DNA of 64,000 nt, from the NCBI RefSeq assembly GCF_036321535.1, contig NC_087436.1, forward strand, positions 41,108,001 to 41,172,000, given 5' to 3'. Below, in pieces: positions 9,451-61,517 of this stretch (position 1 is its first letter; each line of letters begins with the position of its first letter). Under the pieces are notes generated by a model. That model saw only the letters and a list, made by a program, of their open reading frames with translations, was not told where the DNA came from and did no database searches. The stretch comes from Camelus dromedarius (taxonomy: Eukaryota). The translations under genes and the position numbers were made by a program.

Positions 9451-9485
<35 letters not shown>

Positions 9486-17870: not shown

Positions 17871-18289
17871 AAATGGGGATGCCAACAGCTTATTTTTTTC
17901 TGCATGAAAGAAACAAGATTATAATTTATGGGTTGTTAATATTTTAAAAATTCTAAGAATGATGTAAACATCAGTTGATAGAGGAGATAGTCTATTCAGG
18001 AATAATATTAGTATATATTAAAATCAAATTGTCTTCTCACTGTGAAATGAGACTCATCAGATTTAATATCATTATGCATAATAAGAGAAAACAAGTTTAT
18101 ATATTTTATTATTCTACTTAGTTTAAAATAGTAAAAGGTATTATGGTACATAGGTTTATATTTTTCTAGTTAAGTATTACAAATTGATGCTAATACATTA
18201 CAAAATGTATTTTTCCATTAAGTTTTCCAAATTCATATGAACAAAACACAACCCCAAGGCTGGTTCTGTTTCTTCTGTGACTACTGTTC

Positions 18290-29945: not shown

Positions 29946-30008
29946 ATATGAATAATTCCATGTCAACCATGCATTCGAAAAATCTTTTTTTTTGTGGAAT
30001 CACATTAA

Positions 30009-31720
30009 TTTTTTTAAACTTTTTTTTTATTGAGTAATAGTCATTTTACAATGTTGTGTCAAATTCCAGTGTAGAGCACAATTTTTCAGTTATACATGAA
30101 CATACTTATATTCATTGTCATATTCTTTTTCACCGTGAGCTACCACAAGATCTTGTATATATTTCCCTGTGCTATACAGTATAATCTTGTTTATCTATTC
30201 TACATTTTGAACTCCCAGTCTGTCCCTTCCCACCCCCCACCCCCTTGGCAATCACAAGTTTGTATTCTATGTCTATGAGTCTGTTTCTGTTCTGTATTCA
30301 TGGTTTTGTTTTTTTTTTTAAGATTCCACATATGAGCGATCTCATATGGTATTTTTCTTTCTCTTTCTGGCTTACTTCACTTAGAATGACATTCTCCAGG
30401 AACATCCATGTTGCTGCAAATGGCGTTATGTTGTCGGGTTTTATGGCTGAATAGTATTCCATCGTATAAATATACCACTTCTTCTTTATTCAGTCATATG
30501 TTGATGGACATTTAAGCTGTTTCCATGTCTTAGCTACTGTAATTAGTGCTGCTATGAACATTGGGGTGCAGGTGTCATTTTGAAGTAGGGTTCCTTCTGG
30601 GTATATGCCCAGGAGTGTGATTCCTGGGTCCTATGGTAAGTCTGTTCCTAGTCTTTTGAGGAATCCCCATAGTGTTTTCCACAGTGGCTGCACCAAACCG
30701 CATTCCCACCAGCAGTGTAGGAGGGTTCCCTTTTCTCCACAGCCTCTCCAGCATTTGTCATTTGTGGACTTTTGAATGATGGCCATTGAGACTGGTGTGA
30801 GGTGATACCTCATTGTAGTTTTGATTTGCATTTCTCTGATAATTAGTGATATTGAGCATTTTTTCATGTGTCTATTGATCATTTGTATTTCTTCCTTGGA
30901 GAATTGCTTGTTTAGGTCTTCTGCCCATTTTTGGATTGGGTTGTTTGTTTTTTTCTTATTAAGTTGTATGAGCTGCTTATATATTCTGGAGATCAAGCCT
31001 TTGTCAGTTTCATCTTTTGCAAAAATATTCTCCCATTCTGTAGGTTGTCGTTTTGTTTTATTTATGGTTTCCTTTGCTGTGCAAAAGCCTGTAAGTTTAA
31101 TTAGGTCCCATTTGTTTATTCTTGCTTTTATTTCTATTGCTTGGGTAGACTGCCCTAGGAGAATATTTTTGAGATGCATGTGAGATAATGTTTTGCCTAT
31201 GTTTTCTTCTAGGAGGTTTATTGTATCTTGTCTTATGTTTAAGTCTTTGATCCATTTTGAGTTGATTTTTGTGTATGGTGTAAGGGAGTGTTCTAGCTTC
31301 ACTGATTTACATGCTGCTGTCCAGTTTTCCCAACACCATTTGCTGAAGAGACTGTCTTTATTCCATTGTATGTTCTTGCCTCCTTTGTCGAAGATTAGTT
31401 GACCAAAGTTTGTGGGTTCATTTCTGGATTCTCTATTCTGTTCTATTTTTCTATATGTCTGTTTTTGTACCAATACCATGCTGTCTTGATTACTGTAGCA
31501 CTATAGCATTGTCTGAAGTCTGGGAGAGTTACTCCTCCAGTCTCTTCCTTTTTCTTCCATAATGCTTTGGCAATTCTAGGTCCTTTGTGGTTCCATATAA
31601 ATTTGATTATGATTTGTTCTAGTTCTGCGAAATATGTCCTAGGTAATTTGATAGGGATTGTAGATTGCCTTTGGGCAGGGTGACCACTTTAACAATACTG
31701 ATTCTTCCAATCCAGGAGCA
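30009..31720 (-). mobile_element. Young 5'-truncated LINE-1, copy A (ORF2 3' part + 3'UTR + poly-A)
   Basis: ORF 30631-31479 is L1 ORF2 C-terminus with the CCHC motif '[18 protein letters not shown]'; premature TAG at 30631-30633 and TGA at 30490-30492; G-rich 3'UTR; poly-T on the + strand. Confidence 0.97.
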
Positions 31721-31849
31721 TTTGAATTTAAAGGAAAAAGTATAGTTGGTCATATTGCTGAAATTGCCAGCTGCATTTTAGGAAATCTAATTTTCTAGAA
31801 TTCTCAGAAAGCTCCAGCTTCATACTTGCAAACATTTCTTAAACTACTT

Positions 31850-32060
31850 TTATTAACCAGGAGCTAGTCTAAATGCTAGGCATGTATCCCTTGTTTAATT
31901 CTCACAATAAAACATTACAACACTTTTTAATATTTTCATTTTAAAGATAGGGAAACTGAGTCATAAAGAAGTTAAGTAACTTTTCCAAAGCCATACAAGC
32001 AGTAAAGGAAGTAAGTGGACTTTAAACCTAAGTAGTGTGGCTCTTAAAACCTCTTTAGTC
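31850..32060 (-). mobile_element. MIR SINE
   Basis: 'cattttaaagatagggaaactgagtcataaagaagttaagtaacttttccaaagcc' is the antisense MIR core. Confidence 0.8.
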
Positions 32061-32094
32061 TTTAGGCAGAGTGTATTTTAATTTGTTTGTTTTG

Positions 32095-32255
32095 ACTAAT
32101 ATCAAGTAACTCAGCCTTAGATTGGATTTCTTCATCAGCGAAAAGAGGAAAATAAAAAGCTTCCTCATAGTATTTTTGAGATGATTAAATGAAATGATAC
32201 TCATAAATGTGTCTAGCTATACAGTATAATTGTAGTTGCAGCATTTATTATTAAT
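32095..32255 (+). mobile_element. MIR SINE fragment
   Basis: 'caagtaactcagcct...tttcttcatc...cttcctcatagtatttttgagatgattaaatga'. Confidence 0.65.
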
Positions 32256-32289
32256 GGTATTTGGAGCATGAAGTCTGTCTAAAGAAATA

Positions 32290-32650
32290 ATCTGAGATAT
32301 GAAGAAAGATTTATATATAATGAAATTGAAGACAGTTTTATTATTATAGTAAAAATGAGAAACAGTCTAAATATAATTTAAGAAAATGGTTATAAATAAA
32401 TTATGGTACATCCAGGGAACATTATGAAGTCAGTAGTATTATCTTTCAAAAATATTTAGTTATTTGGAAATGTTTATAATGTAAGAATAAATGAAAGAAA
32501 TAATGAAAATCACATGGAAGTACTTGTATATAAATGCACTCAAATATATGACTATTAGGAATTGCTCGATGTTACTACTGCTTAGTTCTGGCTCGTGGCA
32601 TTATGATTTATTTTCCTTTCACCTTTTGTAAAATCCAAATTCTCTACAAT
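32290..32650 (+). mobile_element. Ancient L1 3' end fragment (L1ME-like)
   Basis: 'aatggttataaataaattatggtacatcca', 'tgtttataatgtaagaataaatgaaag'. Confidence 0.55.
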
Positions 32651-33129
32651 AGATATCTATCAATTTTATGTAAATATAAGGCGTTAATTTAAAATTTTAT
32701 GTCTGCAAAAGATTAGAGGAAAAGTGACATTTTATATCCTGATAGAACTTTTAAAAATTTTATCATGATATGCTGTAATGAGAGTATTCATATTATAAAA
32801 AATTAGAACTACATTTTAAGTATATATTATTTATAAGTTCTTTTCAAAAGTATGCTCATCAAATTAATAGCAAAATTACTGCACTGCATAAAATTCCCTT
32901 TAGTAATTTTCATTAAGTGGACTTCTGGTTTATTTTCTGCCCTAAGCACTACTAGTTTTTTCTTTTTCTGAAAGAAACACTATGAGGCTTAATTATTAAT
33001 TGTGAAGTATTTGATCTCTCTCAAATGCATGTAAGATATTATTCAAAGAATTGTAATCAGCATGCAAATCCAAATAAAGTATTAACACAAGTAGAATACA
33101 TTAAATAATTACATCCTGGTCTCTATTAC

Positions 33130-33500
33130 ATGACAAAATGGTGAATTCTGGTATTTAGCAGCCCTTCCTCTATCCAAGCCTGTGAACTGCTTCCCCTGTC
33201 CCTTAGTGCTAGCTGTGGGCCCAGGAACCCAGATGGCCTCTCATCCACAAGTAGTGCAGAGTGTGCTTCTCCACAGGATGGTGGTGTCAGGGCTCTAAAG
33301 GGTGGAGATGAATGCTGCAAGGTTTTTTAAGGCCCAGCCTTAGAAATCAAATTGTATCACTGTACCAAAATGCAGTTAAAGGCCTTCCCAGATTCAAGGA
33401 GTCAAGAAATTGACTCAGACTCTTGAGTTGAGAAGTGGCAAAATCACATTGCTAAAGAGCGTGGGAGGAATCTCACGCAGCTGTCTGAGAAAGCATTCTC
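33130..33500 (-). mobile_element. Old MaLR LTR fragment
   Basis: 'aaggcccagccttagaaatc...tatcactgtacc...ccagattcaaggag...gagaagtggcaaaatcacattgc'. Confidence 0.55.
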
Positions 33501-34830
33501 ACCTAGTATCTACATTTCCCCAGCTGTCACCTTAGGCCTACCCAGGGAGAGGGCGGAGCACTACTGTTTCAAAGTGCACTTTGTCATGTCCCTTCACGTT
33601 GCCTGTCTCTTCTCTGCACCCACGATTCCCAGGGAGAAGTAAACTCCGGAAGCACAAAATAACATTCTTCATAATCCTTCATAAAGGAAGGATTCAGGCA
33701 TGATTTTCTCTGCCCATTTTTCCATGAAAAATTTTCAAAAAGTAGGTGGGTATTTTTTATCATGTGGGAGGCAAAGTACATAGGCATGGAAAATGTGAAA
33801 GTACAGCAGTGGGCATTTATTAAAAGACATATGTTCAACATTAATAAAATCACTATGAAAGTTAAAAAAGAAACATTAATGTCACTTTCCTTGCTTACAG
33901 GAAGGTTACTGTCAGTTTGATAATTCAAACATAACTAATACACATTGAAATTATAAAACAATATATTATATAATAGTTATTTATATAATTATGCATTAAT
34001 AAGACACAAAATACGCATACAATTTGTGGAATGTGTGGTTAGGGTGATCTTAATTACTGAGAATAAAGGTAATTTAGATTTGAGTAGCTTTTGAAGAACA
34101 GGAGGTGAATTTTAGAGATAATAGCTGGAGCTAAGTAAGATAGAGAAGGCTATTAAAAATCAAAGTATGTTTAAGTAGATATGTGGGTCTATATTTGGCA
34201 ATTTTGAACTGACACCTTAATAACAATTAACAAAATAGTCCCACTATGCATCTGGTTGGTTGTTCAATCCAGAAATGTAACAACTGTCTTTCACTGATGT
34301 CCTTCAGGCATATATTTAAGAGTAATGGCCAACACTTACTGAAAACTACATCCCCTACTTTTGAAATGATCAGTGTTCTTGTCTAATAATGGAAATAATA
34401 ATGTATTTGTTGTAAGCATTAAATAAATTATTAAAGGTAAGACCCTTAGAATATGATCTGTCATATAATAATATTGCAATAAATGTTAACTATTGTCACT
34501 ATTAATATTTACATCATCGTTATTACTCTATACCAAATTTATCCACTCTTCCCCACCTTTACGGTAACTACCTTATTCTAAAATGCCATCTCTTCTTGCC
34601 TGGCTGCCTATAATGGTCCCTTCTCTCAGCTTCCACTTTTGACTTTAAACATAGTTTTTCAAAAAGCAGTAAGATATATTTTCTATTAGCACAAAAAATC
34701 TTACCAGTTTTTTCCTGATAAAAAGTTTGTTTTTCATTTGTATCTTTATCTTAAATGTGATGTATCTTTTTGCTTTGGCTGCTTTTAAGATTCGCTACTT
34801 ACATATAGTTTTTTGCAGTTTGCCTATGCC

Positions 34831-35430
34831 TATGGCAGACAGACGCTAAGGTAACCCCAATGATTTCCAGTCTTCTAATGTTCACACCATTGTGTATTCT
34901 GTCCCCAACCCCCACTTCCCCTGTGTCTGGGCAGGATCTGTAACTTGCTTCTAACCAGAACAGTATGACAAATGTGATGAAATGGTAATATCCTAATGAG
35001 ATCTGATTAGGTTCCACTATATGGCAAAGGTAATGAGATACCATTCATACGACCCTGTTAGATTAGAAAAGACTTCACATTAGCTGATTAGGGCTAGAGC
35101 ATTTCCTTACAGGCTTGGTGTAGTAAGGATAAGTGGCCATGTTGAAAAAGTCCACGTGGTAAGAAACTCAAATGGTTTCTAGCCAATGGCAAAGAGCTGG
35201 GGACCATTCTTACAGCTACAATGGAATGAACTCCACCACCAACCTGAGCTTAGCAGCAGGTTCTTCTCTAGGCAAGCTTCTAGAAGACAGTAAAGCCTAG
35301 CTGTCACCTTGACTGCAGCCTTGTGAGACCCTTACCAGAGGACCACTTGGGCCTGGCCTGGGCTCCTGACCCAAAGAAACTGTGAGATAGTAAATGCGTG
35401 TTTTTCTAAGCCAATGAGGCTGCAGTGTTG
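34831..35430 (+). mobile_element. MaLR LTR (MLT1E-like)
   Basis: 'caggatctgtaacttgcttctaaccagaa', 'gactgcagccttgtgagaccct', 'cctgacccaaagaaactgtgagatagtaaatg'. Confidence 0.8.
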
Positions 35431-36123
35431 AATGTGTGAGTGCATATCCAGAGTACCCTTGAATTTAGTACTTTATTTTGAATATGATCTACCTTGCTGA
35501 TCCTTTAAGAGGAAAAAAAACCAAATTTGATCCTGTAATCTCTAAATATATTTGGAACTCGGATGTTATCTGTTTAATTTCCTCTTATTCCCATTTATTT
35601 TATTACATTCTGTGAATCCTCCTGAAGCTACATGACAGAAGCTACACTTCAATTGAAACACACATTTTTAGGTAGTTGTGTCACCCTTTCACTATACCGA
35701 GTATAATTAGTTATGTTGTGCAAATTGTTACTATTATGAGAAAAAAAAGCAGTAAGTGTAATTTTTTTTTCCTAGATCACATCCAAAAGCAAGTTAAGTT
35801 TCTCTCTATGGGCCCAAACATTTAACTCAATATTCATGTGAATAGCAGAAGGCACTATCATAATTGGGAAATTGAATACAAAACCTTCTAGAATAGAACA
35901 TACACAGAATAATGATACACATTTATATGGCTCCTTGACTCCCTGATTTGTAATAAATTTGCATTAGAGCCCTATTTAACTCTTTAACAAATTTCCAAAC
36001 TATTTTACAATTCCATCAAAAAGCCCATGACTAAGATAACTCAAATCTCTGAGAATCTGTTTTTAAAATGTTCAACAAGAGGAACAAATAAATAAATATG
36101 AAAATAAAATTCTGTTTCAGAAG

Positions 36124-36148
36124 TGTTGTTGTTGTTGTTGTTGTTGTT
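36124..36148. repeat. (GTT)n microsatellite
   Basis: Directly visible. Confidence 0.9.
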
Positions 36149-37375
36149 TTAACCTTGTGTTCACCCCTACATCAAGTTGTATTGAACATCTGTCAAATTT
36201 CTTGCCTTTCAGGAAATGATTGCTCAGTCATATTTTTGCAGGAAAAAAAAGTTACCTTAAAATAGAGTAACACTCCAAACTCTAGAAAGACAGTCTCATC
36301 ACTACAGTTCTTACAAATGTGCAGTTTATTACTTCAGAAAATGGTAACTGCGTCTGTTCATTTCTTCCATCTCCAGAAATAATCTCCTGTGAATGCTGCC
36401 CAGTATATCAATTTCCCCTCTACCACTCATGGTGTAATAAAGGAGGTATTGGAAATCCCACTTCTATTCATTTCTTTTTTTCCCCTGATTCCAAGGACAT
36501 AAGGAGACATCAAAAATAGTTCAGAGGTGAGCTTACTGCCATTATTTTCTGATATAAATAAAACTTTTTAAAAAGTAGCTGAAATTTTAAAATTTTATTT
36601 CATTTTCATACTCTATCCATTCCTGTATATTCTTGTATAAATATGGGATAAAACATGTATAACTATAGATCCTATAAAGACAATTCATATAGAGATTCAC
36701 AGCATTAGCAGAATTTTATCCCATTACATATAAAGTCAACTAAAAATTAGGGGGCACATCTGAAAGTTTACGAACACTCACATGGAATTAATATCCCAAT
36801 ATACAAACTTCTCACACTTCACTGCATATCAGTTCAAAATTCTTATAGGAAGAGAATGATCTTTCATATATGATTATTTCATAGAAATCTTAGATTTGAG
36901 ATAATTAATACACTCTCTTCTAAACTTACAGTGTTCACAGTAGATTTGGGGTATAATCAGTTTCACAGCTTTTTTTATTTGTTTTCTGCTTTTTCTATTT
37001 ACTGTTTTCTTGAGGAAGATTTGTGAGAAATAAAATATTTGGTCATAAAAATTAACATTCATATTTTCAATATACTAAATATATTTTCAGATATAAAATG
37101 TAAGCTTAATAAAAGAAATTCTTTACACTAATTATGTGAATTAATTATGAGTAACTGCTGTTAAGCAGAAAAGTTTAAAGGAACAAGTAATAAAATTTTT
37201 ATATTTATGCCAGTTTCCAGATCCAGTTGTACTAACTCTTATGTTTCAAACAAGTGACTCTAATAGTCTCAAAATTAGGATCTATGAATAAATAAGAATT
37301 CGTAAATCCTTTATGTAACTGATGCATGGATGAAATGAACAGTTTCAAACAAGTAGATATTCAAAATCTATTTTG

Positions 37376-37413
37376 AAAGTTATGAATGGGTAAAAGTTAT
37401 GAATGGGTAAAAG
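37376..37413. repeat. Perfect 17-bp tandem duplication (aaagttatgaatgggta x2)
   Basis: Directly visible. Confidence 0.95.
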
Positions 37414-37665
37414 CAGCCTGGGTGAAATAGAGTACCAAGTATTTGATTTTTTAATATGATGCTAGAATATACATTTTTCTTACAAACCATGTATGAGTTA
37501 AATTTGAAAGTCAGAAGTCATGTAATGCAAAAATTTATGTAATCTACCTATATACATTTTCCATGATATATAAGAAGAGATATGAATTTAAAATTAAATT
37601 ACATTTAATATCATTCAGCATGATTGAAGTATACAAAACAACTATAAAAAATATATTAACTGAAT

Positions 37666-38390
37666 AGGGCCTACTACTTAAATGTTCAACCAATAGTTAC
37701 ACAGGGCCTCTGGCTCTAGAAGGCCCCACTTTTGGGGTTTAATGTTCTGTGGCAGTCATCTTGAAATTCTTAATTTTATTTTTAAATTCCTAAGTGAAGT
37801 ATTTGGTAAGTGAGGATCCATGAGGCAACGAATCATGCACCAGGTGCCTGGGATCTCAGCTCATGTGCCATAGCTCATCCTGCCACTCTCCATTTCCCTA
37901 GAATGGATTCTTCACCACCTGCTCCCTGTCTCCTGATACTCCAGCTCCACCTGTCCTTTCTCACACCATCTCTCTCCCACAGTAGCTGCTGCTCTCCACT
38001 TGGAGTGGCAATTGGGTCCCATCAGCAGATGGGAAAAATCTTCATTTCGTCTTTGCTCTCCACCCCTAGTAGGGGCCTGAGCACAATAAGAGAAGGATTG
38101 GGGTCTCCCCATATCTTAAAGCTTCTAGTACAGGGCAAGGTGACAGCTATCCTCTCTCTGGGCTGCAAGCCCCATTGTGCGTTCAGCAGGCAACTCTGCA
38201 GGGGCCTCTTGCCCAGCACTGATCTAGGTACCAACCACATCCTGGTGTGGAGGGTGCAATCTCCTGTAGGTCACCCAGTGGATATGAGCTAGGGTGGCAG
38301 CCTGTGACAAGAAGATGCTGAATTCTCTGCCTCTTCCCAAGGCCACGCATTTTAATTTTTCACCGAACCCTGAAAATTATATGCAGTCAG
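37666..38390 (+). mobile_element. MER45-family hAT-Tip100 DNA transposon (MER45B/C-like)
   Basis: 5' part 'cacagggcctctggctctagaaggcccc...ggtttaatgttctgtggcagtcatcttgaaattcttaat' and 3' part 'ggccacgcattttaatttttcacc...aaaattatatgcag' match the MER45 ends as recalled. Confidence 0.75.
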
Positions 38391-39863
38391 ATATGACTAT
38401 GAGTATGTATAAATGCCATTAAGCATTTTGAATATATGAAAAGATTTTTCCCTACCAGTGTTTTTTGCTCAAATAGTTTTTCACTTACTTGATGATTATT
38501 TTTAAGGTTTTTCTGCTTGGCATGTAACCTTTTTATTTTGTGATAAAAATGCTTTCATATAAATTTCATCTTAACTACTTTTAGAATGAAATTTTGAAAT
38601 TGAAAACAAAGTGCGCACTTTCCTTACTATGTATAGGTGGAAATATGCAGTCATTTTATTGGTTATTGGGTTTTTCATACAAACAGATATCATATCACTT
38701 TTAAGAGAAATATACACAAGGAAGAAGCCACAGTACCAGTTGGGAAAGGGAGCCTCAGGGAATATAAACTTGTCCTCTCAAATAGACATACATGTAGTCT
38801 ATTAGTTAAGGCCACAATTCCAAACCACCTGAAGACAAAACATTATATCTTTGGTTCTTTTTTATACAAGAACTATGAACTAGCAAATTTAATAATAAGG
38901 TGATATAATGGACTTATGCATTATAGTTAATTGGTTACATAAAATCTTAAACTCTCAGTCTCTGTTTCCCTCACAATTCTCCCTCCCTCACCATCATGTA
39001 AATCATAAAATGATGCTTAACACAAAATGGAAGGGACAAAAAAATTAAAAAACAAACAAACAAAGGCACACAGAAGAGGAATCGAGGGAAGAATTTATGA
39101 AGATAAAGCAAAACTTTGGGGACCGGGGAGGGTAACCTGGCATAAAAAGTGTGTCCTATGCAAACTTAGTCTCCAATTAGAGCACAGATGACAATGTGGT
39201 TCTTTATCTTACCTTTTCTCTTATTGGACATCATACAACTCAAGGGTTCTTACAATCTAAGAGACTTAAATGCTTGAAAGGCAGTGTCTTCCCCTCATCA
39301 CCGAAACCAGATGTCTGTAAGGGCAGCTTTCACATTCACTTCCTGCAAACTCAAAGGATCCCAAGGAGGAACAAGCAATTTAGGCCTACAATGTGTCTGG
39401 GGAGGGAGGAAGCTATAAAGGATTAAGCTGTTGGATGAGAGGCTGATACATTCATGAAGTGGGGCTGGAAGAGGAGGACAGAAAAGCACTGATGTGGTGG
39501 GGTCCTTAGTGGTCCATGTAGATAGGTTCTCCCTATCTGTGAATCAACAAATGGCTCTCAGGATAGCCTCACCACTCAGAATGATAAAATGTTACCCACT
39601 ATGGTAGAATTGACATGTGAGGGAAAAAAATACAGAATGAACAAACAATCTGCTTATTTCAGGGTAGAACTAATTATTTTTGCTAGTGCAGTGAACTTGG
39701 GCAGGACTGAAAAAAAAAATTTGTAGACTTCCATGCTAATAGACCCACAAGGTTTCCAAATGAGGCCATAGGCAGATAAATCAGGAAAATGGGAAGCACT
39801 TATGCTTCAGTGGATTACTAATTAATCAATCTTCATTGGATTACTACAAATTTATCTCACCCT

Positions 39864-39890
39864 TCTCTCTCTCTCTCTCTCTACCTCTCT

Positions 39891-39928
<38 letters not shown>
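39864..39928. repeat. Compound (CT)n(CA)n microsatellite
   Basis: Directly visible. Confidence 0.95.
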
Positions 39929-39930
<2 letters not shown>

Positions 39931-40039
39931 CTCACCCTAATCACTTTCTCACTAACTTCTATTCAACCTAACAAGCTACAGTCAAGCCTTCATTTCATAT
40001 TAATTGTACTCAGTTTTTAACAGTACATCAAATACTTTA

Positions 40040-40350
40040 TTGACTATAGCTATTCTTAGGTTTGAATTTTTATTGTTTGATTCTGCCATTTTTCACCTTG
40101 GTAATCCCCACTGATCATTCAGGTCTTGAATAAAAGCCTCATTTTTTTCTAGCAACCATTACCTGTTGCCCCGCATATGGGTTATATATGCCCTTCACAT
40201 TCTGCTGTAATTGTTTAGTTATCTCTATGATCATCATGCACCAAACTATTAAATCCTCAGTTTCCTATCTTGTATCTTGTCCTCTTCACTGTTATATTTT
40301 CAGTCTACCAAAGAGTGCCTTGCCCAACTAAATGTGTTAAACATTATCTG
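40040..40350 (+). mobile_element. L2 3' fragment
   Basis: 'tatcttgtcctcttcactgttatattttcag...agagtgccttgccca'. Confidence 0.45.
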
Positions 40351-40459
40351 GCATAAGCTCTTTTGGATGTAACAATATTCTCATCAGAGCTCAAAAATGC
40401 CAAGTAAATCTATAATGACGTTTTGAAATACATGTCTTACTACATAACCTGCTAAAGCA

Positions 40460-40680
40460 ATTGAGTGTGTGTCCCAAAATCAAAACACCTGAGTTTAAAA
40501 ATGAGCTCCACCTCTTGCAACTGTGTGATGTTGGGCAACTGGCTTTTCTTTCCATGCCTGAGTCATAATCTGTAAAATGAAAATAAAGATTCTGTACCTC
40601 ATGACTTTGTTTTGAGAACTGAATGAGATTATGTGTGCAAAGCCCTCAGAACTTCATCTGGCAGTGTTAAATATTACGAC
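40460..40680 (+). mobile_element. MIR SINE
   Basis: 'cctgagttt...gctccacctcttgcaactgtgtgatgttgggcaa...tctgtaaaatgaaaataa...gagaactgaatgagattatgtgtgcaaagccctcag'. Confidence 0.8.
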
Positions 40681-41129
40681 TGTGATGTCTGTGAAACAAT
40701 CTGGGGATTAGAAATTTTAAAAAAAAGATGAAAAATACAATCTAAATACATATTTGGAACAAATAATAAATGAGGGAGGTAGATCCAACCAGTTATTCAG
40801 ATATAAGGAAAATTCTAATGCTATGAAAGAGGTACAATTATACTCTTCCCCAAAAGGTAAGATGAAAAATATAAGAGAAGCAATTAACACAAAAAATGTA
40901 AATGGCCAATAAATGTGTATCAGTGCTTAACTAAGTTCACACAGTGAATTGCTGGCAATGTCTTAATAGAACTCAGGTGTTTTTGTATTCAATCTGTTTT
41001 CCATTCTGTTGTGTAATCTTTTCTTCAGTAATTATTCAGACTGTCTACTTGTGGTATACAGCAATAAACTCTGTGCTAGAAACTTTCCTCATAACTTTTG
41101 TAAATTGGTTTTGCTTCCCTTCAAAAAAC

Positions 41130-41230
41130 GTTCTTCCTTTTTCCTGTTCCTCTCTCTTTCAATCTCTCTTCTTTCCTTCCTTCCTTTTTTCTTTTCCTTC
41201 TTTTCTTTCTCTTCTTTCTCCCTTTCTTTG
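41130..41230. repeat. CT-rich low-complexity (polypyrimidine) tract
   Basis: Directly visible. Confidence 0.85.
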
Positions 41231-42319
41231 ATTTAAAATATTTGCAAACTCTTGGGAAATTTTTAACAAAGATAGCTTTCATACAATCTACCATAAATGT
41301 ATACACATTAAAAAATTATGCAATTTTTAAAGATTTGATATGTTGACTATTATTCTGTAAATATAAAGGCTAAAAGTGGTTTATTTATCCACTGTACACA
41401 GTGAAGATAGCATGGAATACTGTACTAATCTAATGCAAAAAGTCTTGCATTCAGAAAATTATGCACTCATTCAACCTTAGTAAGTCTTTCTTAATTACAT
41501 TGCAGAGTTGCATTAAATATGAAAAGCAAGCTTCTCTGGAAATCAGCAAACCTTGTATTGAAACATTCTTTCCCAAGCTTAAAATTGCAATTAGCCATTA
41601 CTATCTATTACACACAGTAATCCTCATAATTGCTGCTTCTGTTCATTAGTTTCCTTTCTTGGAGCTCCTCTTTACATAATTAACAGTCTGATTTTTGTAT
41701 ATTTAAAATACTAAACAGAAAACTTGGTATCAACAAAACAATATTATTCTCTAATTTAAACAAAGGTACCCTGGCATATTACACTTGCTATAATAAAATA
41801 CATGGTTTTAAACTATACAAACTGCTGAATGATTTCAAAATGTTAATAGCACTAAAATACATCCAGAAGCCTCAAATTTAGTTGGTATTAAAGTTTTCAA
41901 GTGGTGACAAACATAAGGTATATTTAGAATTGATTTTATATATAAATCTCGTTTGTATCCTTAAAATCTTACCTCCCAAATGTAGTCCCAAAATGCAAGG
42001 AAACGGCAAATAAACGTAATACGTTAAAATGAAGCTTTAAGAGTAATACTAAACATGTTTTAGTAACATGTTTATTTTATAATATCTAACACTTTATATT
42101 TTCCAAAGGAGAGAAATTCCAAATATCTAAACATGTCTCCATAGTTTTTTCTTCTGTAAGTAGATTCCTTCTTATATTAGCAATCTCTGTGCTACATTAG
42201 CCATATATACATACATAGTAGCACATTCTGTAAAGGATAAGTCAAAGAGTTTTTAGTGAAACACTGATTAAAATAAGATATGATGGCTATTTCATTATAT
42301 ACACAAAATCAGCAGAAGT

Positions 42320-42495
42320 AGTGGACAAAGATTGACATTGTTGTTATATTAGCATCTTCCTGCAATAGGTATTTACAGCTCATCCAATGAAAAGGTGGAG
42401 CTTGTTTCTTTCCATTGAACACTGACATGTGTGTGACAAGATGTGTCCAATGAAATTCAGTGGGAATGATACTATGCCAGTTTCAACTTCAGGAG

Positions 42496-42526
<31 letters not shown>

Positions 42527-42852
42527 ATGCTTTTACTCTCTCTTTCAGAAATCTGATCAGCTGCCTTATGAATAAACCTGGACTAGCTTACTGGTGGATA
42601 AGAGGCATGTGAAACAGATAAACTATCTAAATTGAAGCTATCCTATGAACACCCCCACCCGCACTCATCCCCACCCCCTCATTGACCTAACAGCTGACAA
42701 CACACTAATAAACCAAACTCCAAGCAGAAGAACTGCCTAGTTGAGTCTAATTCAAATTGCCAACCCACGAAATTGTGAGCTAAATAAAAATTTGTTGTTT
42801 TAAGATCTTATGTTTGAAATGATTTGTTATGAAGCAAAATGTAAGCAATACA
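42320..42852 (+). mobile_element. MaLR LTR (older MLT1 type)
   Basis: 'cagaagaactgcctagttgagtctaattcaaattgccaacccacgaaattgtgagctaaataaaaatttgttgttttaag...aataca'. Confidence 0.75.
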
Positions 42853-43037
42853 TTAGTTAATATAATAAACAAAATGGGATATTAAGATGGATGGTATTTG
42901 GAACAATGTATGAAGTTTCCTTTCATGATTGAATTACATTCCAGTAACAAAATTTTTAAAAATAATATATACTTTGGATAATTGGCACATTTACATAAAC
43001 ACATTACATACACAGGTACAAAGAGATTCTTAAAAAT

Positions 43038-45377
43038 TACACCAGATAGACTGGGGGTAGTTTGCATAATCCCTGCATCCTGATGTTATACTTTTGTGAA
43101 GTCTTCTCCCCTTGAGAGGGCATGGTCTGTGACTAGCTTCTAATAGACTAATGGCAATGGTAAAAGGATGTCATGTCTATTATTTCATTACATTATATAA
43201 TCAACTTTCTTGCTAACTCTGTAAACTCTAATTCCATAGCTGTTTTTGAATAATAATTGGACCCTGCTGTGAAGCCCATGGGACAGGAAGCTGAAGGTGG
43301 ACTTCAAATGATAGCCATGAAGAAACCAGAGGTCTCAGTCATATACTTATAAGGAAATAAATCCTGCCAAAAACCAAAGTAAACTTGGAAGAAGATTCTT
43401 TCCTGGTCAAGCCTCTAGATGAAATTGCAGTTGAACTGATATCCTAGAGACAGCCTTGTGAGACCCTGAGCAGAGGACCTAGTTAAACTCTATCCAGAAT
43501 TCTGACCCAAAGTAACTGTGAGATAGTAAACGTGTGTAATTTCAAGCTACTAAGTTTGTGGTAATTTGTTGTACAACAATAGACAACTAATGTGTTGAAG
43601 ATGCACCTTGGTTTCATCTTGCTGCTTATAATAAATTGCAAGAGGAAAAATATAAATTGAGGGGAAAACTGTTAACAAACATGACACAGGATATGATTTA
43701 AAAAAATCCGTATTTAGTTGGTAAGATATGTTAAAATAAAAAAAATTGACTTCTAAGATATGGAATAGAGATAAGCTTTAATAGGCAAGAAATTTAAGAT
43801 GTAACTTTACAAGTATTTGCTAAAATTTCATAAAGATGAAAAGGTCAAAAGTGTTCAGTCACATAAACAGCCATTTCAAGAGACTAAGGATATATCTCAC
43901 AGATCTTCTCAATAAAACACTAAGACCTCTCTCTAAAAGCTTAAAAGCATGGTCCTTCAGCCATACAAGCAAAATGTCAAGGTGGGGAAGGGCTTATCTC
44001 AAAAGATTTGTGGGTGTGCTTTTTGCTTAATGAATTGAACCTCAATGAAATCTGTAAGAGATCCACAAAATATCTAAAATGTACTTCAGCTAAGGCATCA
44101 ACAACTTCTATTATAGGGACAAAGAGAGTATAAAAAGAAAGAAGTCTGCTGGAACCCAAAAATACTACTTCCTGGAAGCCAGCCAATGAAATTATTCAGT
44201 TGGGAACACATTCTATCTTCAATGAGAAGGACAGAATGGCTCAGGATGCAGAATCAATAGCCCAGAGGGTGAAGGCAAAGTCACAGAGAATTACTCCCAG
44301 ACCTTGAAACACAATCAAGAAATTATTAACATTTTCCTAAGTGGATTTCAGGATTGCTAAGCACCAGTGACTTTTTTTTTTTATTTCCATTTCCTTTTTT
44401 TCTGAATGAAAATATCTATATAGCTGGCCCTCCATATCTGCATATTTTGTAAAACTCACGTACACAGAGGGTCAACTGAATTCATTGTATTATGGCATAC
44501 ATCTTATATTAGGGATTTGAGCAGCCATGGATTTTGGTATCCACGGGGGTTCCCAGAACCAATTTCACACAGACACCAAGGAACAGCTGGAGTTGCAGCT
44601 GTTTTCGTATGTCTGCCCAATATTGTATGTTTTGAGTGTTAACTTGTCTATTTAGTATGTGCATATTGGTAGATCAAGAGGAACTATGCCTATAGGCCCT
44701 CATCCACACCTGGAGCTGATTTAGATTCTGAAATCTGAGCAGATTCTGTAATGGGATGAGACACTGGGAACCATGCGAAAGGGTGAAGGTACCTTGCATG
44801 TGGGAGGAACAGAAATAATTGGAAATCAGAGGAAAGAATGTGCTGGACAGATCTGGGTTGGCCCCCTTTATAATCCCTGCCTCCTGATGTCCACACCCTT
44901 GTTTAGCATCTTCCTATTGAGTGAGCATTATTTATGATGTGTTTCTAACTGATAAACAGTGACAAAAGTGAAAGATGTTATTTCTGCGATTTCGTGACAT
45001 CATATAAGACTGTCTTGCTAGCAGACTCATGCTAGACTCTACCTCTAACTCACTTTGAACAAGTAAGCAGCCCTTTTCAGAGGCCCAGATGGCAAGTACC
45101 TAAGAACAGTCTTTCGGAGCTGTGGGCGGCCTCCAGGTGACACCCATCAAAAGGCTAGGAACCCCAGGTTTAAAGATGTATGGAAATAGATTATGCTAAA
45201 AATGTAAGTAAACTAAGGAATATATTGTTAAATTGCAGCCTTGTGACATTCTAAAAAGAGGAATCAGCTCTGCTGTATTCAAACTCCATACTTCTGGAAA
45301 TTGTGAGATAATAAGTGTGCTATTTTAAGTTACCAAGTTTGTGTTATTTTACTATGCAGCAATTGGTAACTAATACA
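43038..45377 (+). mobile_element. MaLR provirus: LTR (~43038-43592), internal region, LTR (~44839-45377); MLT1E-like
   Basis: Two related LTRs ('ataatccctgc..cctgatgt', 'gcagccttgtga', 'tgtgagata', 'aagtttgtg...aactaat'); purine-rich tract before the second LTR; MLT-int-like sequence between them. Confidence 0.75.
44421..44589. mobile_element. MER2/Tigger-family TcMar MITE nested in the MaLR internal region
   Basis: 'agctggccctccatatctgc...agggatttgagcagccatggattttggtatccacgggggttcccagaaccaat...caccaaggaacagctg'. Confidence 0.75.
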
Positions 45378-45939
45378 AATAGATATTTGACTAATAACAA
45401 ACATATGTATACTACCTTAGGCTGTTTAATATATGATTGAAAAGCTTCATTCTTCTCCAAGGAAATCAGATTATTTCTTTACAAATCCTTTGAAGTTTTT
45501 ATTTGTAAGTCAAGTTTTGAAATAATTTTCTTTATAGGAGTAAAAGTATATTGCTTTAAACACAACATAATTTATTTTTTTTAAATTTCATGCATCTATT
45601 TTATAGTTGATGATAGAATTATTATCTCAGTACTAATTACTGAGCTTCCAAATACTGCACATGTGGCTGCTTTAATTTCTGGGAACTGTCTAGTACTTTC
45701 ACTTAGTTTTCATGGTAAAACAGTTTTTGTCAATATTAGCATATTTGAGAATATTTACTTCCAATAACAACTGTCTTTATATCAATAATACCCTGACTGT
45801 TAGTATTCTCTATGTCATGAGCTTTGTCTCCACAGATACTTCATCACTACTGACATCCCTCAACAAAATATTTTTAGTAAATCACATGAAACCCACAGGT
45901 CATGGAAGACAGAACTGATAAAAGCTAAGAAAAGGATTT

Positions 45940-46440
45940 CAAAAGTTAAAGAGTTAAAAGGATTCATGGAAAAAATTAAAGATATGAGAAGATCAGTAAG
46001 AAAGATAGGCCACAAGTATCAATGGTCTTCTCAAAGAAGAGAATTGAAATAACGAAATGTTATATAATACAAAATATTCCAGGAATAAAACAAGTTTTAA
46101 TCCACCAAAATAAATGGTGAATTGATAAATAGTCCAAAAAAGTTGCTGGATTTCTATAATAATAAAAAACCTGGGTAACATAATCAAGTAAAAACTAAGA
46201 GGCTATGTACAGACTTCTTTCCAGGGACATTTAGCACCAGAATACTGTGGAGAAATATCTACATAATGCTTAGAAAATAAATTCTGTTCTGAGAAATGTA
46301 TATCCATACAAATTGTCCTTTATGTCCAAGTCAAGAAATTGGAATATATGAACATGCAATGGCATAGAATTATTGATTTTGTGTTTCTTAAAGCCACTAC
46401 TAAGAATGAAGTTAACTTAATAATGAATTTGCCAAAAACT
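45940..46440 (+). mobile_element. Ancient L1 ORF1-like remnant
   Basis: A-rich; 'gaatactgtggagaaatatctacataatgcttaga...tatatccatacaaattgtccttt'. Confidence 0.45.
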
Positions 46441-47404
46441 GAAATACTTATGTATATATGTAACAAAATATGTATAAGATCTATATGAAGGAAATTATAA
46501 AACTCTGATGAATGAAATCAAGGAAGAACTAAATAAATGGAGAGACATCTCCTGATCAATAATAGGAATTCAATATTGTCAAGATGTCAGTTCTTCCCAG
46601 ATTAATCTATAGATTCAATATAATCCCAATAAAAATCTGAGCAAATAAATTTATGCATATAACAAGCTGATTCTAAAATTTATGTGGAATGATAAAAGAC
46701 CCAGAATAGCCAAGTCCATATTGAAGGAGAAGAACAAAATTTGGAGGATTGGTGCTACCCAGCTTCAAGACTTATTATATATCTACAGTAATCAAAACAG
46801 TGTGGTATTGTTAAAAGATTGGACAAACAGATCAAAGGAACAGAATAAAAAGCCCAGAAATCGATGCCCATTGATTGATTTGTGTATGTTGAAGTATCTT
46901 TAGTACAGTCAAGTTAAGTACAGTCAACTGACCTTTGACACAGAAATAAAGGTAATGTAATAGAGCAAAGATGGACTCTTCAACAAATGATGCTGAAACA
47001 ACCAACAACCACATGCAAAAAAAGTAATCTAGATACGACCTTATACCCTTCATAAAAATGAACTCAAAATGGATCATAGACCTAAGTATAAAATGAAAAT
47101 TAAAAATCACCTAGAAGATAACACAGGAGAAAACCTAGATCCCCTTGGGTATGGCAATAACTTGTAAGATACCACAACAAAGGCATGATCCATGAAATAA
47201 AGAATTGATAAGCTGGATTTCATTAAAATTAAAAACTTCCACTCTGTCAAAGACAAAGTCAGGACTATGAGAAGAAAAGCCAAAGACTGGGTGAAAATAA
47301 TTAAAAGCATAAAACTGATAAAGGACAGTTCTCCAAAATATAAAAAGAACTCCTAAAATTCAACAGTAGGAAATCAAACAATCGGATTAAAAGATGGGTC
47401 AAAG
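46440..47404 (+). mobile_element. Old L1 (L1MC1-like) ORF2 fragment, left part of the host of copy B
   Basis: Degenerate ORF2 ('WNDKRPRIAKSILKEKNK'); continues collinearly after 50417. Confidence 0.85.
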
Positions 47405-50401
47405 CTCACAGAGAAAAGAGAGAGCACAAATAAGCAAAATAAGAAAGGAAAATGGAGAAATTATAACCAATAACATAGAAACACAGAATATCATATGAGA
47501 ATACTATGAACAACTATATGGCAACAAAATGGATAACCTAGAGGAGATGGACAAGTTTCTGGAAACATACAGTCCACCAAGACTAAATCAAGAAGAAGTT
47601 GACCACTTGAACAAACCAATCACTAGAAATGAGATCAAATTAGCAATAAAAAACCTCCCTACAAATAAAAGTCCAGGACATGATGGCTTCACTGGGGAAT
47701 TCTACCAAACATACAAAGAAGAACTCATACTAGTCCTTCTCAAACTCTTCCAGAAGATTGAAAAGGAGGGAATACTCCCAAATTCATTCTATGAAGCAAC
47801 CATCACCCTAATACCAAAACCAGGCAAAGACACTACCAAAATAGAGAATTACAGACCAATATCACTTAAGAATAAAGATGCAAAAATCGTTACCAAAATA
47901 TTAGCAAATAGAATCCAACAGCACATAAAAAAGATTATACAAAATGATCAAGTGGGGTTCATCCCAGGGACACAAAGATGGTTCAACAAACACAAATCAA
48001 TAAATGTAATGCATCACATCAACAAGAGAAAGGACAAAAACCACATGATCATCTCAATAGATGCAGAAGAAGCATTTGATAAAATTCAACACCCATTTAT
48101 GATAAAAACTCTCACCAAAGTGGGTATAGAGGGAACATATCTCAACATAATAAAAGCTAAATATGACACACCTACAGCCAGCATAGAACTTAATGGTGAA
48201 AAACTCAAAGCTATCCCACTAAAATCTGGACAAGACAAGGCTGCCCACTATCACCATTCCTATTCAACATAGTCTTGTAAGTCCTAGACAAAGCAATCAT
48301 GCAAGAGAGAGAAATAAAAGGGATCCAAATTGGAAAAGAAGAGGTAAAATTGTCACTATATGCAGATGATACGATACTATACATAGAAAACCCCAAAAGG
48401 TCCACACAAAAACTACTAGATATAATCAAAGAATTCGGCAAGATAGCAGGTTACAACATCAACGTACAAAACTCAGTTGCATTTCTTTACACTAATGATG
48501 AATCAACAGAAAAAGAAAGTAAAGAAACAATCCTCTTTAAAATAGCACCCAAAGTAATAAAATACCTAGGAATAAATCTAACCAAGGAGGTGAAAGACTT
48601 ATACATGGAGAACTATAAAACACTGATCAAGGAAATGAAAGAAGACTTAAAAAAAAATGGAAAGATATTCCATACTCCGGGATTGGAAGAATCAATATTA
48701 TTAAAATGGTCATACTGCCCAAGACAATCTACAGATTTAATGCAATCCCCATCAAATTACCCAGGACATATTGCACAGAACTAGAACAAATAATAAAATT
48801 TATATGGAATCACAAAAGACCCACAATTGCCAAAGCATTACTGAAGAAAAAGAAAGGCTGGAGGAATAATCCTCCCAGACTTCAGACAATACTACAGAGC
48901 TACAGTAATCAAGACAGCATGGTATTGGTACAAAAACAGACATATGGACCAATAGAACAGAATAGAGAATCCAGAAATGAACCCACAAACTTTTGGTCAA
49001 CTAATCTTTGACAAAGGAGGCAAGAACATACAATGGAATAAAGACAGTCTCTTCAGCAAATGGTATTGGGAAAACTGGACAGCAGCATGTAAATCAATGA
49101 AGCTAGAACACTCCCTTACACCATACACAAAAATCAACTCAAAATGGATCAAAGACTTAAACATAAGACAAGATACAATAAAACTCCTAGAAGAAAACAT
49201 AGGCAAAACATTATCTCACATGCATCTCAAAAATATTCTCCTAGGGCAGTCTACCCAAGGAATAGAAATAAAAGCAAGAATAAACAAATGGGACCTAATT
49301 AAACTTACAGGCTTTTGCACAGCAAAGGAAACCATAAATAAAACAAAACGACAACCTACAGAATGGGAGAATATTTTTGCAAAAGATGAAACTGACAAAG
49401 GCTTGATCTCCAGAATATATAAGCAGCTCATACAACTTAATAAGAAAAAAACAAACAACCCAATCCAAAAATGGGCAGAAGACCTAAACAAGCAATTCTC
49501 CAAGGAAGAAATACAAATGATCAATAGACACATGAAAAAATGCTCAATATCACTAATTATCAGAGAAATGCAAATCAAAACTACAATGAGGTATCACCTC
49601 ACACCAGTCTCAATGGCCATCATTCAAAAGTCCACAAATGACAAATGCTGGAGAGGCTGTGGAGAAAAGGGAACCCTCCTACACTGCTGGTGGGAATGCG
49701 GTTTGGTGCAGCCACTGTGGAAAACACTATGGGGATTCCTCAAAAGACTAGGAACAGACTTACCATAGGACCCAGGAATCACACTCCTGGGCATATACCC
49801 AGAAGGAACCCTACTTCAAAATGACACCTGCACCCCAATGTTCATAGCAGCACTAATTACAGTAGCTAAGACATGGAAACAGCTTAAATGTCCATCAACA
49901 TATGACTGAATAAAGAAGAAGTGGTATATTTATACGATGGAATACTATTCAGCCATAAAACCCGACAACATAACGCCATTTGCAGCAACATGGATGTTCC
50001 TGGAGAATGTCATTCTAAGTGAAGTAAGCCAGAAAGAGAAAGAAAAATACCATATGAGATCGCTCATATGTGGAATCTTAAAAAAAAAAAAAACAAAACC
50101 ATGAATACAGAACAGAAACAGACTCATAGACATAGAATACAAACTTGTGGTTGCCAAGGGGGTGGGGGGTGGGAAGGGACAGACTGGGAGTTCAAAATGT
50201 AGAATAGATACACAAGATTATACTGTATAGCACAGGGAAATATATACAAGATCTTGTGGTAGCTCATGGTGAAAAAGAATGTGACAATGAATATAAGTAT
50301 GTTCATGTATAACTGAAAAACTGTGCTCTACACCAGAAATTGACACAACATTGTAAACTGATTACAACTCAATAAAATAAAACTAAAAAAAAAAAAAAAA
50401 A
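47405..50401 (+). mobile_element. Young 5'-truncated LINE-1, copy B (~3.0 kb; disrupted ORF2 RT + C-terminus, 3'UTR, poly-A)
   Basis: ORFs 47529-48272, 48299-48784 (YADD), 48706-49011 and 48977-49768 (CCHC motif) are consecutive frameshifted L1 ORF2 pieces; perfect 16-bp TSD aaaagatgggtcaaag (47389-47404, 50402-50417) at a TT/AAAA site. Confidence 0.98.
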
Positions 50402-50417
50402 AAAAGATGGGTCAAAG

Positions 50418-51395
50418 ACCTTAAAGGATAAAGGACCTTAAACTTGCCAAAGAAGATACATGGAAAAAAATTAAGCATATGAAAAACTGTTTCACATCAT
50501 AAGTCTTCAAGAAAATGCAAATTAAAACAACAATGAGATACCACTACATACTTATTACAATGACAAAAGTCAGAACCATGTCAACACTAAATGCTGAGTG
50601 AGATTTTGGAGCAACAGGAACCTTTCATTTATTGCTGGTGGGAATGCAAAATGGTATATCCACTCTGTAAGATACTTTGGTGGTTTTTCTACAAAATTTT
50701 ATCAGATGATCCAGCAATCTCACTCCTTGGTATTTATGCAAAGTATATGCATGCAAAATCCACACATGATGTTTACAGCAGCTTTATCTATAAATGCCAA
50801 ACCTTGGAAGCAATCAAAATGTCCTTCAGTAGCTGACTGGATAAATAAACTGTGGTGCATGTAGACAATGGAATATTATTCAGTGCTAAAAAGAAAAGAG
50901 CTATCAAGCCATAAAAAGACATGAAGAAGTCTTAAATGCATATTAACAAAAAGGAGCCAATCTGAAAAGGCTACATACTGTGTGATTCCAACTATATGAC
51001 ATTCTAGAAAAGGTAAAACTATGGAGACAGTAAAAATATCAGCTGTTGCCAAAGGTTGGAGGGCTTTAAGGAGGGATGAAGAGGCACATCACAGAGGATT
51101 TTTACGGCAGTAAATATTCTGTATGATATAATACTGATGAATATATATCATTATACATTTATTTAAATTCATAGAGTACACAACACCTAAAGCAATCCAT
51201 CAACTATGAATTTTGGGTGATGATATAACAATTTAGGTTCATCAATTTAATAAATTTATCATTCTGGTGGGGAGTATTGGTAATGGGGAGCCCGGGGATG
51301 TGAAGGGTCAGTGGATACATGAATAATCTCTGTTCCTTCATTTTAATGTTGCTGTGAATTTAAAACTGCTCTAAAAAAATGAAGTCAATAGAAAA
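50418..51395 (+). mobile_element. Old L1 (L1MC1-like) ORF2 end and 3'UTR, right part of the host of copy B
   Basis: 'aaatgcaaattaaaacaacaatgagataccactac', 'gccaatctgaaaaggctacatactgtgtgattccaac', end 'gctgtgaatttaaaactgctctaaaaaaat'. Confidence 0.85.
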
Positions 51396-52019: not shown

Positions 52020-52995
52020 GTTTAATTTTTTATTGTGATAAGAACACATAACATGAGATTACACACTTAACAAATCTTTAAGTGCACAATACTGTATTGT
52101 TAATTATAGGCACAATGTTTCAGCAGATCTCTAGAACTCATTCATCTTGCATAACTGAAACTTCATAACCTTTGAACGGCAACTCCCCAATTCCCTCTCC
52201 TCTCAGCACCTGGCAATCACTACTCTGTCTCTATGAACTTGGCTATTTTAGATACCTCATATAATTGGAGTTATGCAGCATGTATCCTTCTGTGACTGGT
52301 TTATTTCATTTAGCATAATATCTTCCAGGTTAATTCATGTTTTTGCATATGGCAGGATTTTCTTTTTAAGGGCTGAATAATATTCTATTATATATATATA
52401 CATACATCACACACACACACACACATATACATACATATATATATACCACATTTTCTTTATCTATTCATCTGTCATTGGGTATGTAGGTTGCTTTCATTTC
52501 TTGACTATTGTAAGTAATGCTGCAGTGAGCATGGGAATTCATGTATGTATTTATTGAGGCCTTGATTTAAATTCCATTCGAAATTATATATCCAGTAGAA
52601 CTGCAAAATTATACGGCAATTCTATTTTTAATTTTTTGAGGAATCACCATACATTTTTTTTCATTGCGGCTGCATTATTTTACATTCCCACCAACAGTGT
52701 ACAAGGGTTTCAATTTCTCCATATACTTGTCAACACTTGTTATATTTTGGGAGTTTTATTTATTTATTTATTTTTGGCAACAGACAATCTAGCAGTGGTG
52801 AAGTGATGAATCATTGGGGGTTTTGATGTACATTTCCCTTATAAGTAATGATTTTAGCAGTTTTTCGTATACCGGTCAATCATTTATATGTCTTCTTTTG
52901 TGAAATGTCTATTCAAGATTTTTGCCCATTATTTAATCAGGTTATTTTTTGCTACTGAGTTGTACACTTTCTTTTATATTTTGGATAATAAGCCT
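52020..52995 (-). mobile_element. L1 3' end (L1MA9-like), with a (TA)/(CA) microsatellite at ~52388-52445
   Basis: 'cagcagatctctagaactcattcatcttgcataactgaaac', 'tttacattcccaccaacagtgtacaagggtt'. Confidence 0.85.
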
Positions 52996-60080: not shown

Positions 60081-60340
60081 GCTGTGAGATTAAAAGTGAT
60101 TGGCCCTAGGTCTCATCCACTTAAAATTTAACGTCATTGGCTCTTATATGAAGGAAAAATAAAGATGAAGTGAATGAATAAAATATAAAGAGATGAAAAA
60201 GTGCAGAAGTTAAGAATCAAGTAAGTTACAATCAATTAACTATTAAATCTAATAAGATTTAATCAAGGTTGCTATCATCCAAAATATAAAAATGACAAAC
60301 AAGTCTTTATGATAATTAAAACACCAGAAAATACCATATA

Positions 60341-61502
60341 TCTGACATACATTTAAAAAATTTTCTCCTAGAAGAAATAAAAGCAAGAATAAACAAATGG
60401 GACCTAATGAAACTTACAAGCTTCTGCACAGCAAAGGAAACCAGAAATAAAACAAGAAGAAAACCTACGGAATGGGAGAAAATTTTTGCAAGTGAAACCG
60501 GCAAAGGCTTGATCTCCAGAATATATAAGCAGCTCATACGACTCAATAAGAAAAAAATAAACAACCCAATCCAAAAATGGGCAGAAGACCTAAACAAGCA
60601 ATTCTCCAAGGAAGACATACAAATGATCAAAAAGCACATGAAAAAATGCTCAATATCACTAATTATCAGAGAAATGCAAATCAAAACTACAATGAGGTAT
60701 CACCTCACACCAGTCAGAATGGCCATCATTCAAAAATCCACAAATGACAAATGCTGGAGAGGCTGTGGAGAAAGGGGAACCCTCCTACACTGCTGGTGGG
60801 AATGCAGTTTGGTGCAGCCACTATGGAAAACAGTGTGGAGATTCCTCAAAAGACTAGGAATAGACTTACCATATGACCCAGGAATCCCACTCCTGGGCTT
60901 GTATCCAGAAGGAAATCTACTTCAGGATGACACCTGCACCCCAATGTTCATAGCAGCACTATTTACAATAGCCAAAACATGGAAACAGCCTAAAGGTCCA
61001 CCAACAGGTGACTGGATAAAGAAGATGTGGTATATTTATACAATGGAATACTACTCAGCCATAAAAACCGACAACATAACGCCATTTGTAGCAACATGGA
61101 TGCTCCTGGAGAATGTCATTCTAAGTGAAGTAAGCCAGAAAGAGAAAGAAAAATACCATATGAGATCGCTCATATGTGGAATCTAAAAAACAAAAACAAA
61201 AACAAACAAACAAAAACAAAGCGTAAATAAAGGACAAAAATAGACTCACAGACAGAGAATACAGACTTGTGGTTACCAGGGGGGTGGAGGGTGGGAAGGG
61301 ATAGACTGGGATTTCAAAATTGTAGAATAGACTACACTGTATAGCACAGGGAAATATACACAAAATGTTATGATAACTCACAGAGAAAAAAATGTGACAA
61401 TGAGTGTGTATATGTCCATGAATAACTGAAAAATTGTGCTGAACACTGGAATTTGACACAACATTGTAAAATGATTATAAATCAATAAAAAATGTTAAAA
61501 AA
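60341..61502 (+). mobile_element. Young 5'-truncated LINE-1, copy C (open ORF2 C-terminal frame, 3'UTR, A tail)
   Basis: ORF 60407-61186 runs uninterrupted to the natural ORF2 end ([18 protein letters not shown]...[10 protein letters not shown]); perfect 15-bp TSD agaaaataccatata (60326-60340, 61503-61517). Confidence 0.97.
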
Positions 61503-61517
61503 AGAAAATACCATATA

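Follow-up and report, generated by a model that had tools for sequence, protein, structure and literature searches.

Layered divergence between two inverted LINE-1 copies of Camelus dromedarius suggests repeated gene conversion

We analyzed a 64-kb stretch of the Camelus dromedarius genome (assembly GCF_036321535.1, contig NC_087436.1, positions 41,108,001 to 41,172,000), hereafter the window, which contains three related copies of long interspersed nuclear element 1 (LINE-1, or L1), named A, B, and C. Judged from their sequences, A and B are probably two separate L1 insertions that were later homogenized by repeated non-allelic gene conversion. All three copies are 5′-truncated L1 ends (Table 1), and A and B lie in opposite orientation, with their 5′ ends pointing inward. 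When the window was compared with itself by blastn, A (30009-31721, minus strand) and B (48672-50393) showed 95.8% identity over 1728 columns, and each of them was about 88.5% identical to C. A repeat finder reported the inverted arms as 1102 nt long, 99% complementary, and 17,584 nt apart, and, apart from L1 copies and a dinucleotide run, it listed no other long inverted repeat among the 25 longest of its 164 pairs.

The reverse complement of 30320-31138 was equal to 49261-50079 at 819/819 bases, and the exact match went 11 bases further at the 3′ end and 0 at the 5′ end, giving an identical core of 830 bp. An earlier note on this DNA had claimed the 819-bp match without differences, as well as two nonsense codons shared by A and B where C has TAT and TGG, and both claims, coordinates included, agreed with our alignment. 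A third stop common to A and B, at a codon where homologues have tryptophan, lies in the layer 5′ of the core, suggesting that this layer was homogenized too. Alignment of the core with C showed 55 substitutions in 813 columns, and 34 non-synonymous and 13 synonymous codon differences, a ratio that fits neutral decay after insertion. The 34 amino-acid differences were polarized with copy C and up to 120 mammalian homologues as outgroups; 14 were derived in A and B (both core stops included), 11 in C, and 9 were unclear. Because the core holds 14 derived amino-acid changes, its identity does not appear to be a matter of mere youth.

Read from 5′ to 3′, the substitutions between A and B fell into five zones, with a divergence of 11.2%, 1.6%, 0% (0 of 826 columns), 1.7%, and 17.4%. 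Fisher tests gave p values of 1.7 × 10−6, 0.0015, 0.0022, and 9.7 × 10−5 at the four successive zone steps, and the paired zones were alike across the core (outer versus outer, p = 0.23; inner versus inner, p = 1), these values being optimistic, as the zone borders were set after the differences were seen. The divergence 5′ of the core, which had been described in the earlier note, was found again (30 substitutions plus 4 indel events over 268 columns); that of the terminal 3′ untranslated region (UTR) held for the last 46 columns, with 8 substitutions, and failed for the 231 columns nearer the core, with only 4. The layer of about 1.7% that flanks the core on both sides was absent from that note, as were the third shared stop and the target-site duplication of B described below. 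When all 53 A/B differences were shuffled over 1686 columns, the observed run was reached in 0 of 20,000 shuffles (mean 140, maximum 388), and a second set of shuffles, confined to the 11 differences within the inner 1.37-kb block, reached it in a fraction of 0.00055 of 20,000. Since the core run stands out within the inner block too, two layers of homogenization are suggested. As a control, B was compared with C over the core; the longest identical run was 81, and this was reached by 13.8% of 5000 shuffles. No such tract is seen in copy C, a direct repeat of B at a distance of 10 kb, whereas the inverted partner A, 16 kb away, is homogenized; this is a single observation. As a guide to the direction of conversion, codons changed at conserved positions were counted, and amounted to 7/35 in the 5′ zone of A, 2/40 in the 5′ zone of B, and 15/134 in the core, with 6 of these 15 also changed in C. 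Codons changed only in C were 3/131, and those changed only in the A/B core were 9/134. Copy C, whose open end of open reading frame 2 (ORF2) runs for 288 codons from stop to stop, looks less decayed than the A/B core.

The same profile bears on common descent. If A and B were sisters descended from a single mutated L1, or members of a young subfamily that carried the stops, the core would be identical by descent, and the two copies do belong to the same family and occupy neighboring positions. Sisters are expected to diverge evenly, but we observed 11%, 1.6%, 0, 1.7%, and 17%; moreover, the frameshifts upstream in B mark a long decay. L1 shows cis-preference, which makes an ORF2-disabled source a poor parent, and this source would have carried three ORF2 stops. 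We therefore consider such an origin very improbable.

The flanks of B indicated how it arrived. It is bordered by a 16-bp target-site duplication, identical at 16/16 positions, with a chance of about 2 × 10−6 over 4000 sites on the basis of composition, and its 5′ target copy sits behind what we take to be a TT/AAAA-type endonuclease site. B is nested within an older L1 that is collinear across it: the left half stops at the B-equivalent position 49475 and the right half restarts at about 49500, extending, by eye, to about 51390. As the perfect duplication lies inside a collinear older L1, B is, on this evidence, a separate L1 insertion. Copy C also has a target-site duplication (15/15 bp, 60326-60340 and 61503-61517). 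An alternative origin for A, as a DNA-level inverted duplicate of the 3′ end of B whose ends decayed later, would agree with A being wholly within the span of B and with its weak target-site duplication; nevertheless, the alignment showed that A terminates at its own A-tail and shares none of the flank of B, and in its tail and in the final 46 columns of the UTR it is nearer to C than to B (of the 8 differing sites, A has the base of C at 5 and B has it at 3). A perfect center with decayed ends would require conversion anyway, and we find this origin scarcely credible.

The older L1 with B nested in it (46432-47404 and 50418-51390) is an orientation marker of the locus. A crossover inversion in the core would part the target-site copies of B and split the older L1; neither is seen, so the haplotype is not inverted. 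A swapped target-site pairing, the sign of a present inversion, was looked for at A and B and none was found. With the target-site copies of B still paired and the older L1 collinear, this haplotype is, as far as these marks can tell, in the ancestral orientation, so that the number of flips in its past would be zero or even. The earlier note had proposed independent insertions followed by gene conversion, and a candidate inversion hotspot. The first proposal is supported by the nested layers, the three shared stops, the 14 derived residues, the duplication flanking B, and the unconverted copy C; no sign of the second was seen in this haplotype, which is in ancestral orientation.

We propose that A and B would pair ectopically and that a double-strand break in one copy would be repaired from the other. 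At least two conversions would have taken place, the older over about 1.37 kb and the recent one over at least 0.83 kb. Concerted evolution that had run for a long time and been worn away at its edges, where heterology prevents pairing, would look the same. No function is apparent for the pair, which looks like a neutral side effect of repair. In the excerpts of the literature on which we draw here and below, a review describes conversion among transposon copies as lowering their divergence, as more frequent at short distance, and as having raised rates under 10 kb (PMC6598467). For a camelid host, a published rate of 2.5 × 10−8 per generation, with five-year generations (PMC8605555, quoted in part), corresponds to 5 × 10−9 changes per site per year, and gave rough ages of about 13 million years (Myr) for the outer zones, about 1.7 Myr for the inner layer, and at most 0.36 Myr for the core, estimates that double at half that rate. 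The pair is a warning that repeat-to-repeat identity can misdate copies.

Several observations weigh against conversion. The target-site duplication of A is tentative and was not recovered by a 7-mer word search. Copy C is the sole outgroup of the same lineage, and some residues counted as shared derived may be subfamily traits. When B and C were compared over the core plus the 3′ UTR, only 2.8% of shuffles gave a run of 81 or more, a figure that we put down to uneven divergence of ORF2 and UTR. No GC bias was observed in the core, which had a strong base where C has a weak one at 19 sites and the reverse at 27, an unpolarized count without power; such a bias is frequent in conversion tracts but is no requirement. 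In addition, mammalian conversion tracts rarely exceed 1 kb, according to the part of PMC3961182 at hand, and the tract here is 830-1370 bp; and the intermediate layers, 309 and 231 bases wide, are close to the insert length of short reads, as would be a collapsed repeat whose edges were patched from anchored mates.

The last point leads to the possibility that assembly or polishing collapsed the locus, i.e., that the true copies are about 1.7% apart over the whole 1.37-kb block, after one old conversion, and that one center was written twice. At 1.7%, the core should hold about 14 differences, and difference-keeping layers of this width are what such an error could leave. On the other side, the window has zero N in 64 kb and belongs to a chromosome-scale sequence of over 41 Mb, mildly hinting at long reads able to span 1.7 kb. 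Words of the enclosed segment were matched at 0.99-1.00 in 20/24 public contig sets (10 studies) and next to none in 4/24, although 14 of these 20 may be the source of the assembly, and the matches are silent on the core. Collapse also leaves the 1.7% layer and its shared stop unexplained, so conversion would be needed even if the core were collapsed. We regard this error as unlikely.

The length of the tract, for its part, keeps alive a route in which a crossover inversion at one point in the pair was followed by reversion at another, with an exchange of the stretch between the two points. Ordinary allelic recombination within the enclosed segment would afterwards have brought together a swapped left copy and an unswapped right one, leaving both with that stretch, and the layers would record repeated flips. 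Long tracts come naturally by this route, and it ends in the ancestral orientation with paired target sites, as observed. A human inversion, HsInv0341, flanked by an inverted L1PA3 pair (6.2 kb, 20.8 kb apart), is listed as recurrent in the portions available of PMC3961182 and bioRxiv 10.1101/501981; that L1 pairs take this particular route is our own inference. It would need three events per layer instead of one for conversion, and in yeast crossovers are the outcome of only about 4% of conversions (PMC9731477, in excerpt); no inverted allele was observed here. Moreover, a start at 12% divergence is hardly possible, when the eight human LINE-1-mediated inversions reported in PMC9675761, of median 5,487 bp, have L1 pairs with a median similarity of 97.1%. 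This route is, in our judgment, decidedly unlikely, and repeated conversion between two separate insertions is the reading that we retain.

Conversion between inverted repeats at times resolves as a crossover that flips the spacer (PMC9731477, as excerpted), and if this happened within the core, about 18 kb would be inverted. The pair could therefore be an inversion substrate, a flip being hypothetical. Compared with human L1-flanked inversions, as far as the cited excerpts describe them, A and B are alike in being an inverted L1 pair with similar spacing and a near-identical stretch within an overall identity of 95.8%; they differ in that the repeats are far shorter (1.7 kb, of which 0.83 kb is perfect), the identity is secondary between old copies, and the human loci have inverted alleles whereas A and B are known here from one haplotype in the ancestral orientation. 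The flip/flop region of Saccharomyces (PMC9731477) offers another likeness, with inverted repeats held alike by conversion and inversion as a possible by-product; the inverted repeats of the mammalian X-linked recurrent inversion of Caceres et al. (as cited in PMC9731477) and the arms of the X-palindromes (PMC8981503) are likewise homogenized by conversion. In what these sources report, however, the arms of all three are several kb or longer, mostly gene-bearing, and homogenized across species, whereas A and B are remnants of dead L1s, in which no gene was found. The Alu-Alu and long terminal repeat (LTR)-LTR conversions treated in the consulted part of PMC6598467 resemble our case in the lowered divergence and shared derived changes of neighboring same-family copies; here, by contrast, the elements are L1 copies about 16-18 kb apart, with two nested layers and a tract of 0.8-1.4 kb.

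Conversion between transposon copies and L1-flanked inversions are both known, and the locus is a new instance; our literature search, outside of which fell most subscription journals, turned up nothing published on this locus, nor on inverted L1 pairs of camelids that show conversion. To us, A and B preserve the layers of ectopic repair between dead retrotransposons as a clean record. Its weight is modest, and an inversion of small size could segregate at this site unseen by short reads. The enclosed DNA yielded no gene, so a phenotype from an inversion here is unlikely, barring an intronic or regulatory window. It is doubtful, though not far-fetched, that A and B form an accidental mini-palindrome, with a concerted evolution that has lasted millions of years while shrinking from the edges, a segment of about 18 kb toggling, and both orientations segregating today. 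If true, old inverted L1 pairs 10-20 kb apart would be general, under-counted, self-renewing inversion substrates in mammals, and such pairs would be recognizable in a single genome by their nested layers of divergence. The locus would have greater weight as one case in a genome-wide tally of converted inverted versus direct L1 pairs.

Table 1. Features of the L1 pair and its surroundings, in positions of the window.
Feature	Position	Strand	Description
Copy A	30009..31721	-	5′-truncated L1, about 1.7 kb: ORF2 end, 3′ UTR, A-tail (blastn and alignment)
Copy B	47405..50401	+	5′-truncated L1, about 3.0 kb, with frameshifts and stops (Pfam RVT_1, broken frames)
Copy C	60341..61502	+	Related L1 with open ORF2 end; internal control, not homogenized
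RVT_1 Pfam matches in B	47499-48269 and 48281-48781	+	E = 3.4 × 10−20
Identical core in A	30309..31138	-	830 bp, exact
Identical core in B	49261..50090	+	830 bp, exact
5′ unconverted zone	A 31448..31721; B 48672-48950	A -	30 substitutions and 4 indel events in 268 columns
5′ intermediate layer	A 31139..31447; B 48951-49260	A -	5 substitutions and 1 indel in 309 columns
3′ intermediate layer	A 30082..30312; B about 50090-50320	A -	4 substitutions in 231 columns
3′ unconverted zone	A 30036..30081; B 50321-50366	A -	8 substitutions in 46 columns
Shared stop TAG	B 49766-49768; A 30631-30633	B +; A -	C has TAT
Shared stop TGA	B 49907-49909; A 30490-30492	B +; A -	C has TGG
Third shared stop TAG	B 48953-48955; A 31443-31445	B +; A -	Homologues have Trp; in 5′ intermediate layer
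Target-site duplication of B, 5′ copy	47389..47404	+	16 bp, directly before B
Target-site duplication of B, 3′ copy	50402..50417	+	16/16 identical, directly after the A-tail
Tentative target-site duplication of A	5′ copy 31719..31729; partner 30003-30011	-	9 matches and a 2-base indel; by eye, weak in AT-rich DNA
Older L1 hosting B, 5′ half	46432..47404	+	64% identical to B; aligns to B-equivalent 48549-49475
Older L1 hosting B, 3′ half	50418..50891	+	In register; 50447-50891 aligns to B-equivalent 49500-49960
Enclosed segment	31722..47404	.	15.7 kb from one 5′ end to the other; 18.1 kb when measured from core to core at their inner ends

The ORF2 of copy B begins upstream of its reverse transcriptase domain and runs through to the A-tail. 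Its C-terminal frame was matched by 8000/8000 scored candidates at E ≤ 0.001, and those with names included LINE-1 ORF2 relatives from pig, whales, and primates, with 55-79% identity among the best 120 listed; no L1 copy of the same lineage was among those 120. A short motif common to A, B, and C had 0 matches in metagenome contigs, and the A/B core had no match among plasmids. Two older L1 3′ fragments, at 16346-17250 (+) and 52251-52995 (-), are mutually inverted and 65-72% identical to A, B, and C, and no sign of homogenization was seen for them in the window comparison.

The segment enclosed by A and B looks like non-coding, repeat-rich DNA. No Pfam family scored above cut-off in 145 frames, nor in a 160-aa frame at 37810-38292, in a scan of frames of at least 62 aa only (152 found; 145 scanned, frame 48619-49008 scanned with them, plus 6 separately), from which short exons could escape. 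Pfam matches at E ≤ 0.01 occurred in 5/145 frames, all under the curated cut-offs, and were taken as chance; this includes a GREB1 N-terminal domain at 7946-8134 (-), with E = 0.0026 and 18.1 bits against a cut-off of 27.2. Searches for Rfam families and tRNA gave no match anywhere in the window, whose GC content is 33%. The stop-free frame of 160 codons at 37810-38292, a GC-richer patch, is probably part of an old repeat, and a 17-bp perfect tandem duplication of 2.2 copies lies at 37376-37413. Inside the enclosed segment, 35238-35401 and 43373-43537 form a direct repeat, 72% identical over 167 columns, and are presumably two old LTR-type elements. Microsatellites of GT (9446-9492) and AC (39893-39928) lie in opposite orientation, and the AC one, inside the enclosed segment, is a possible linked marker. 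Finally, an extremely AT-rich patch at 17600-17885 contains tandem units of 11 and 22 bp with imperfect self-complementarity.

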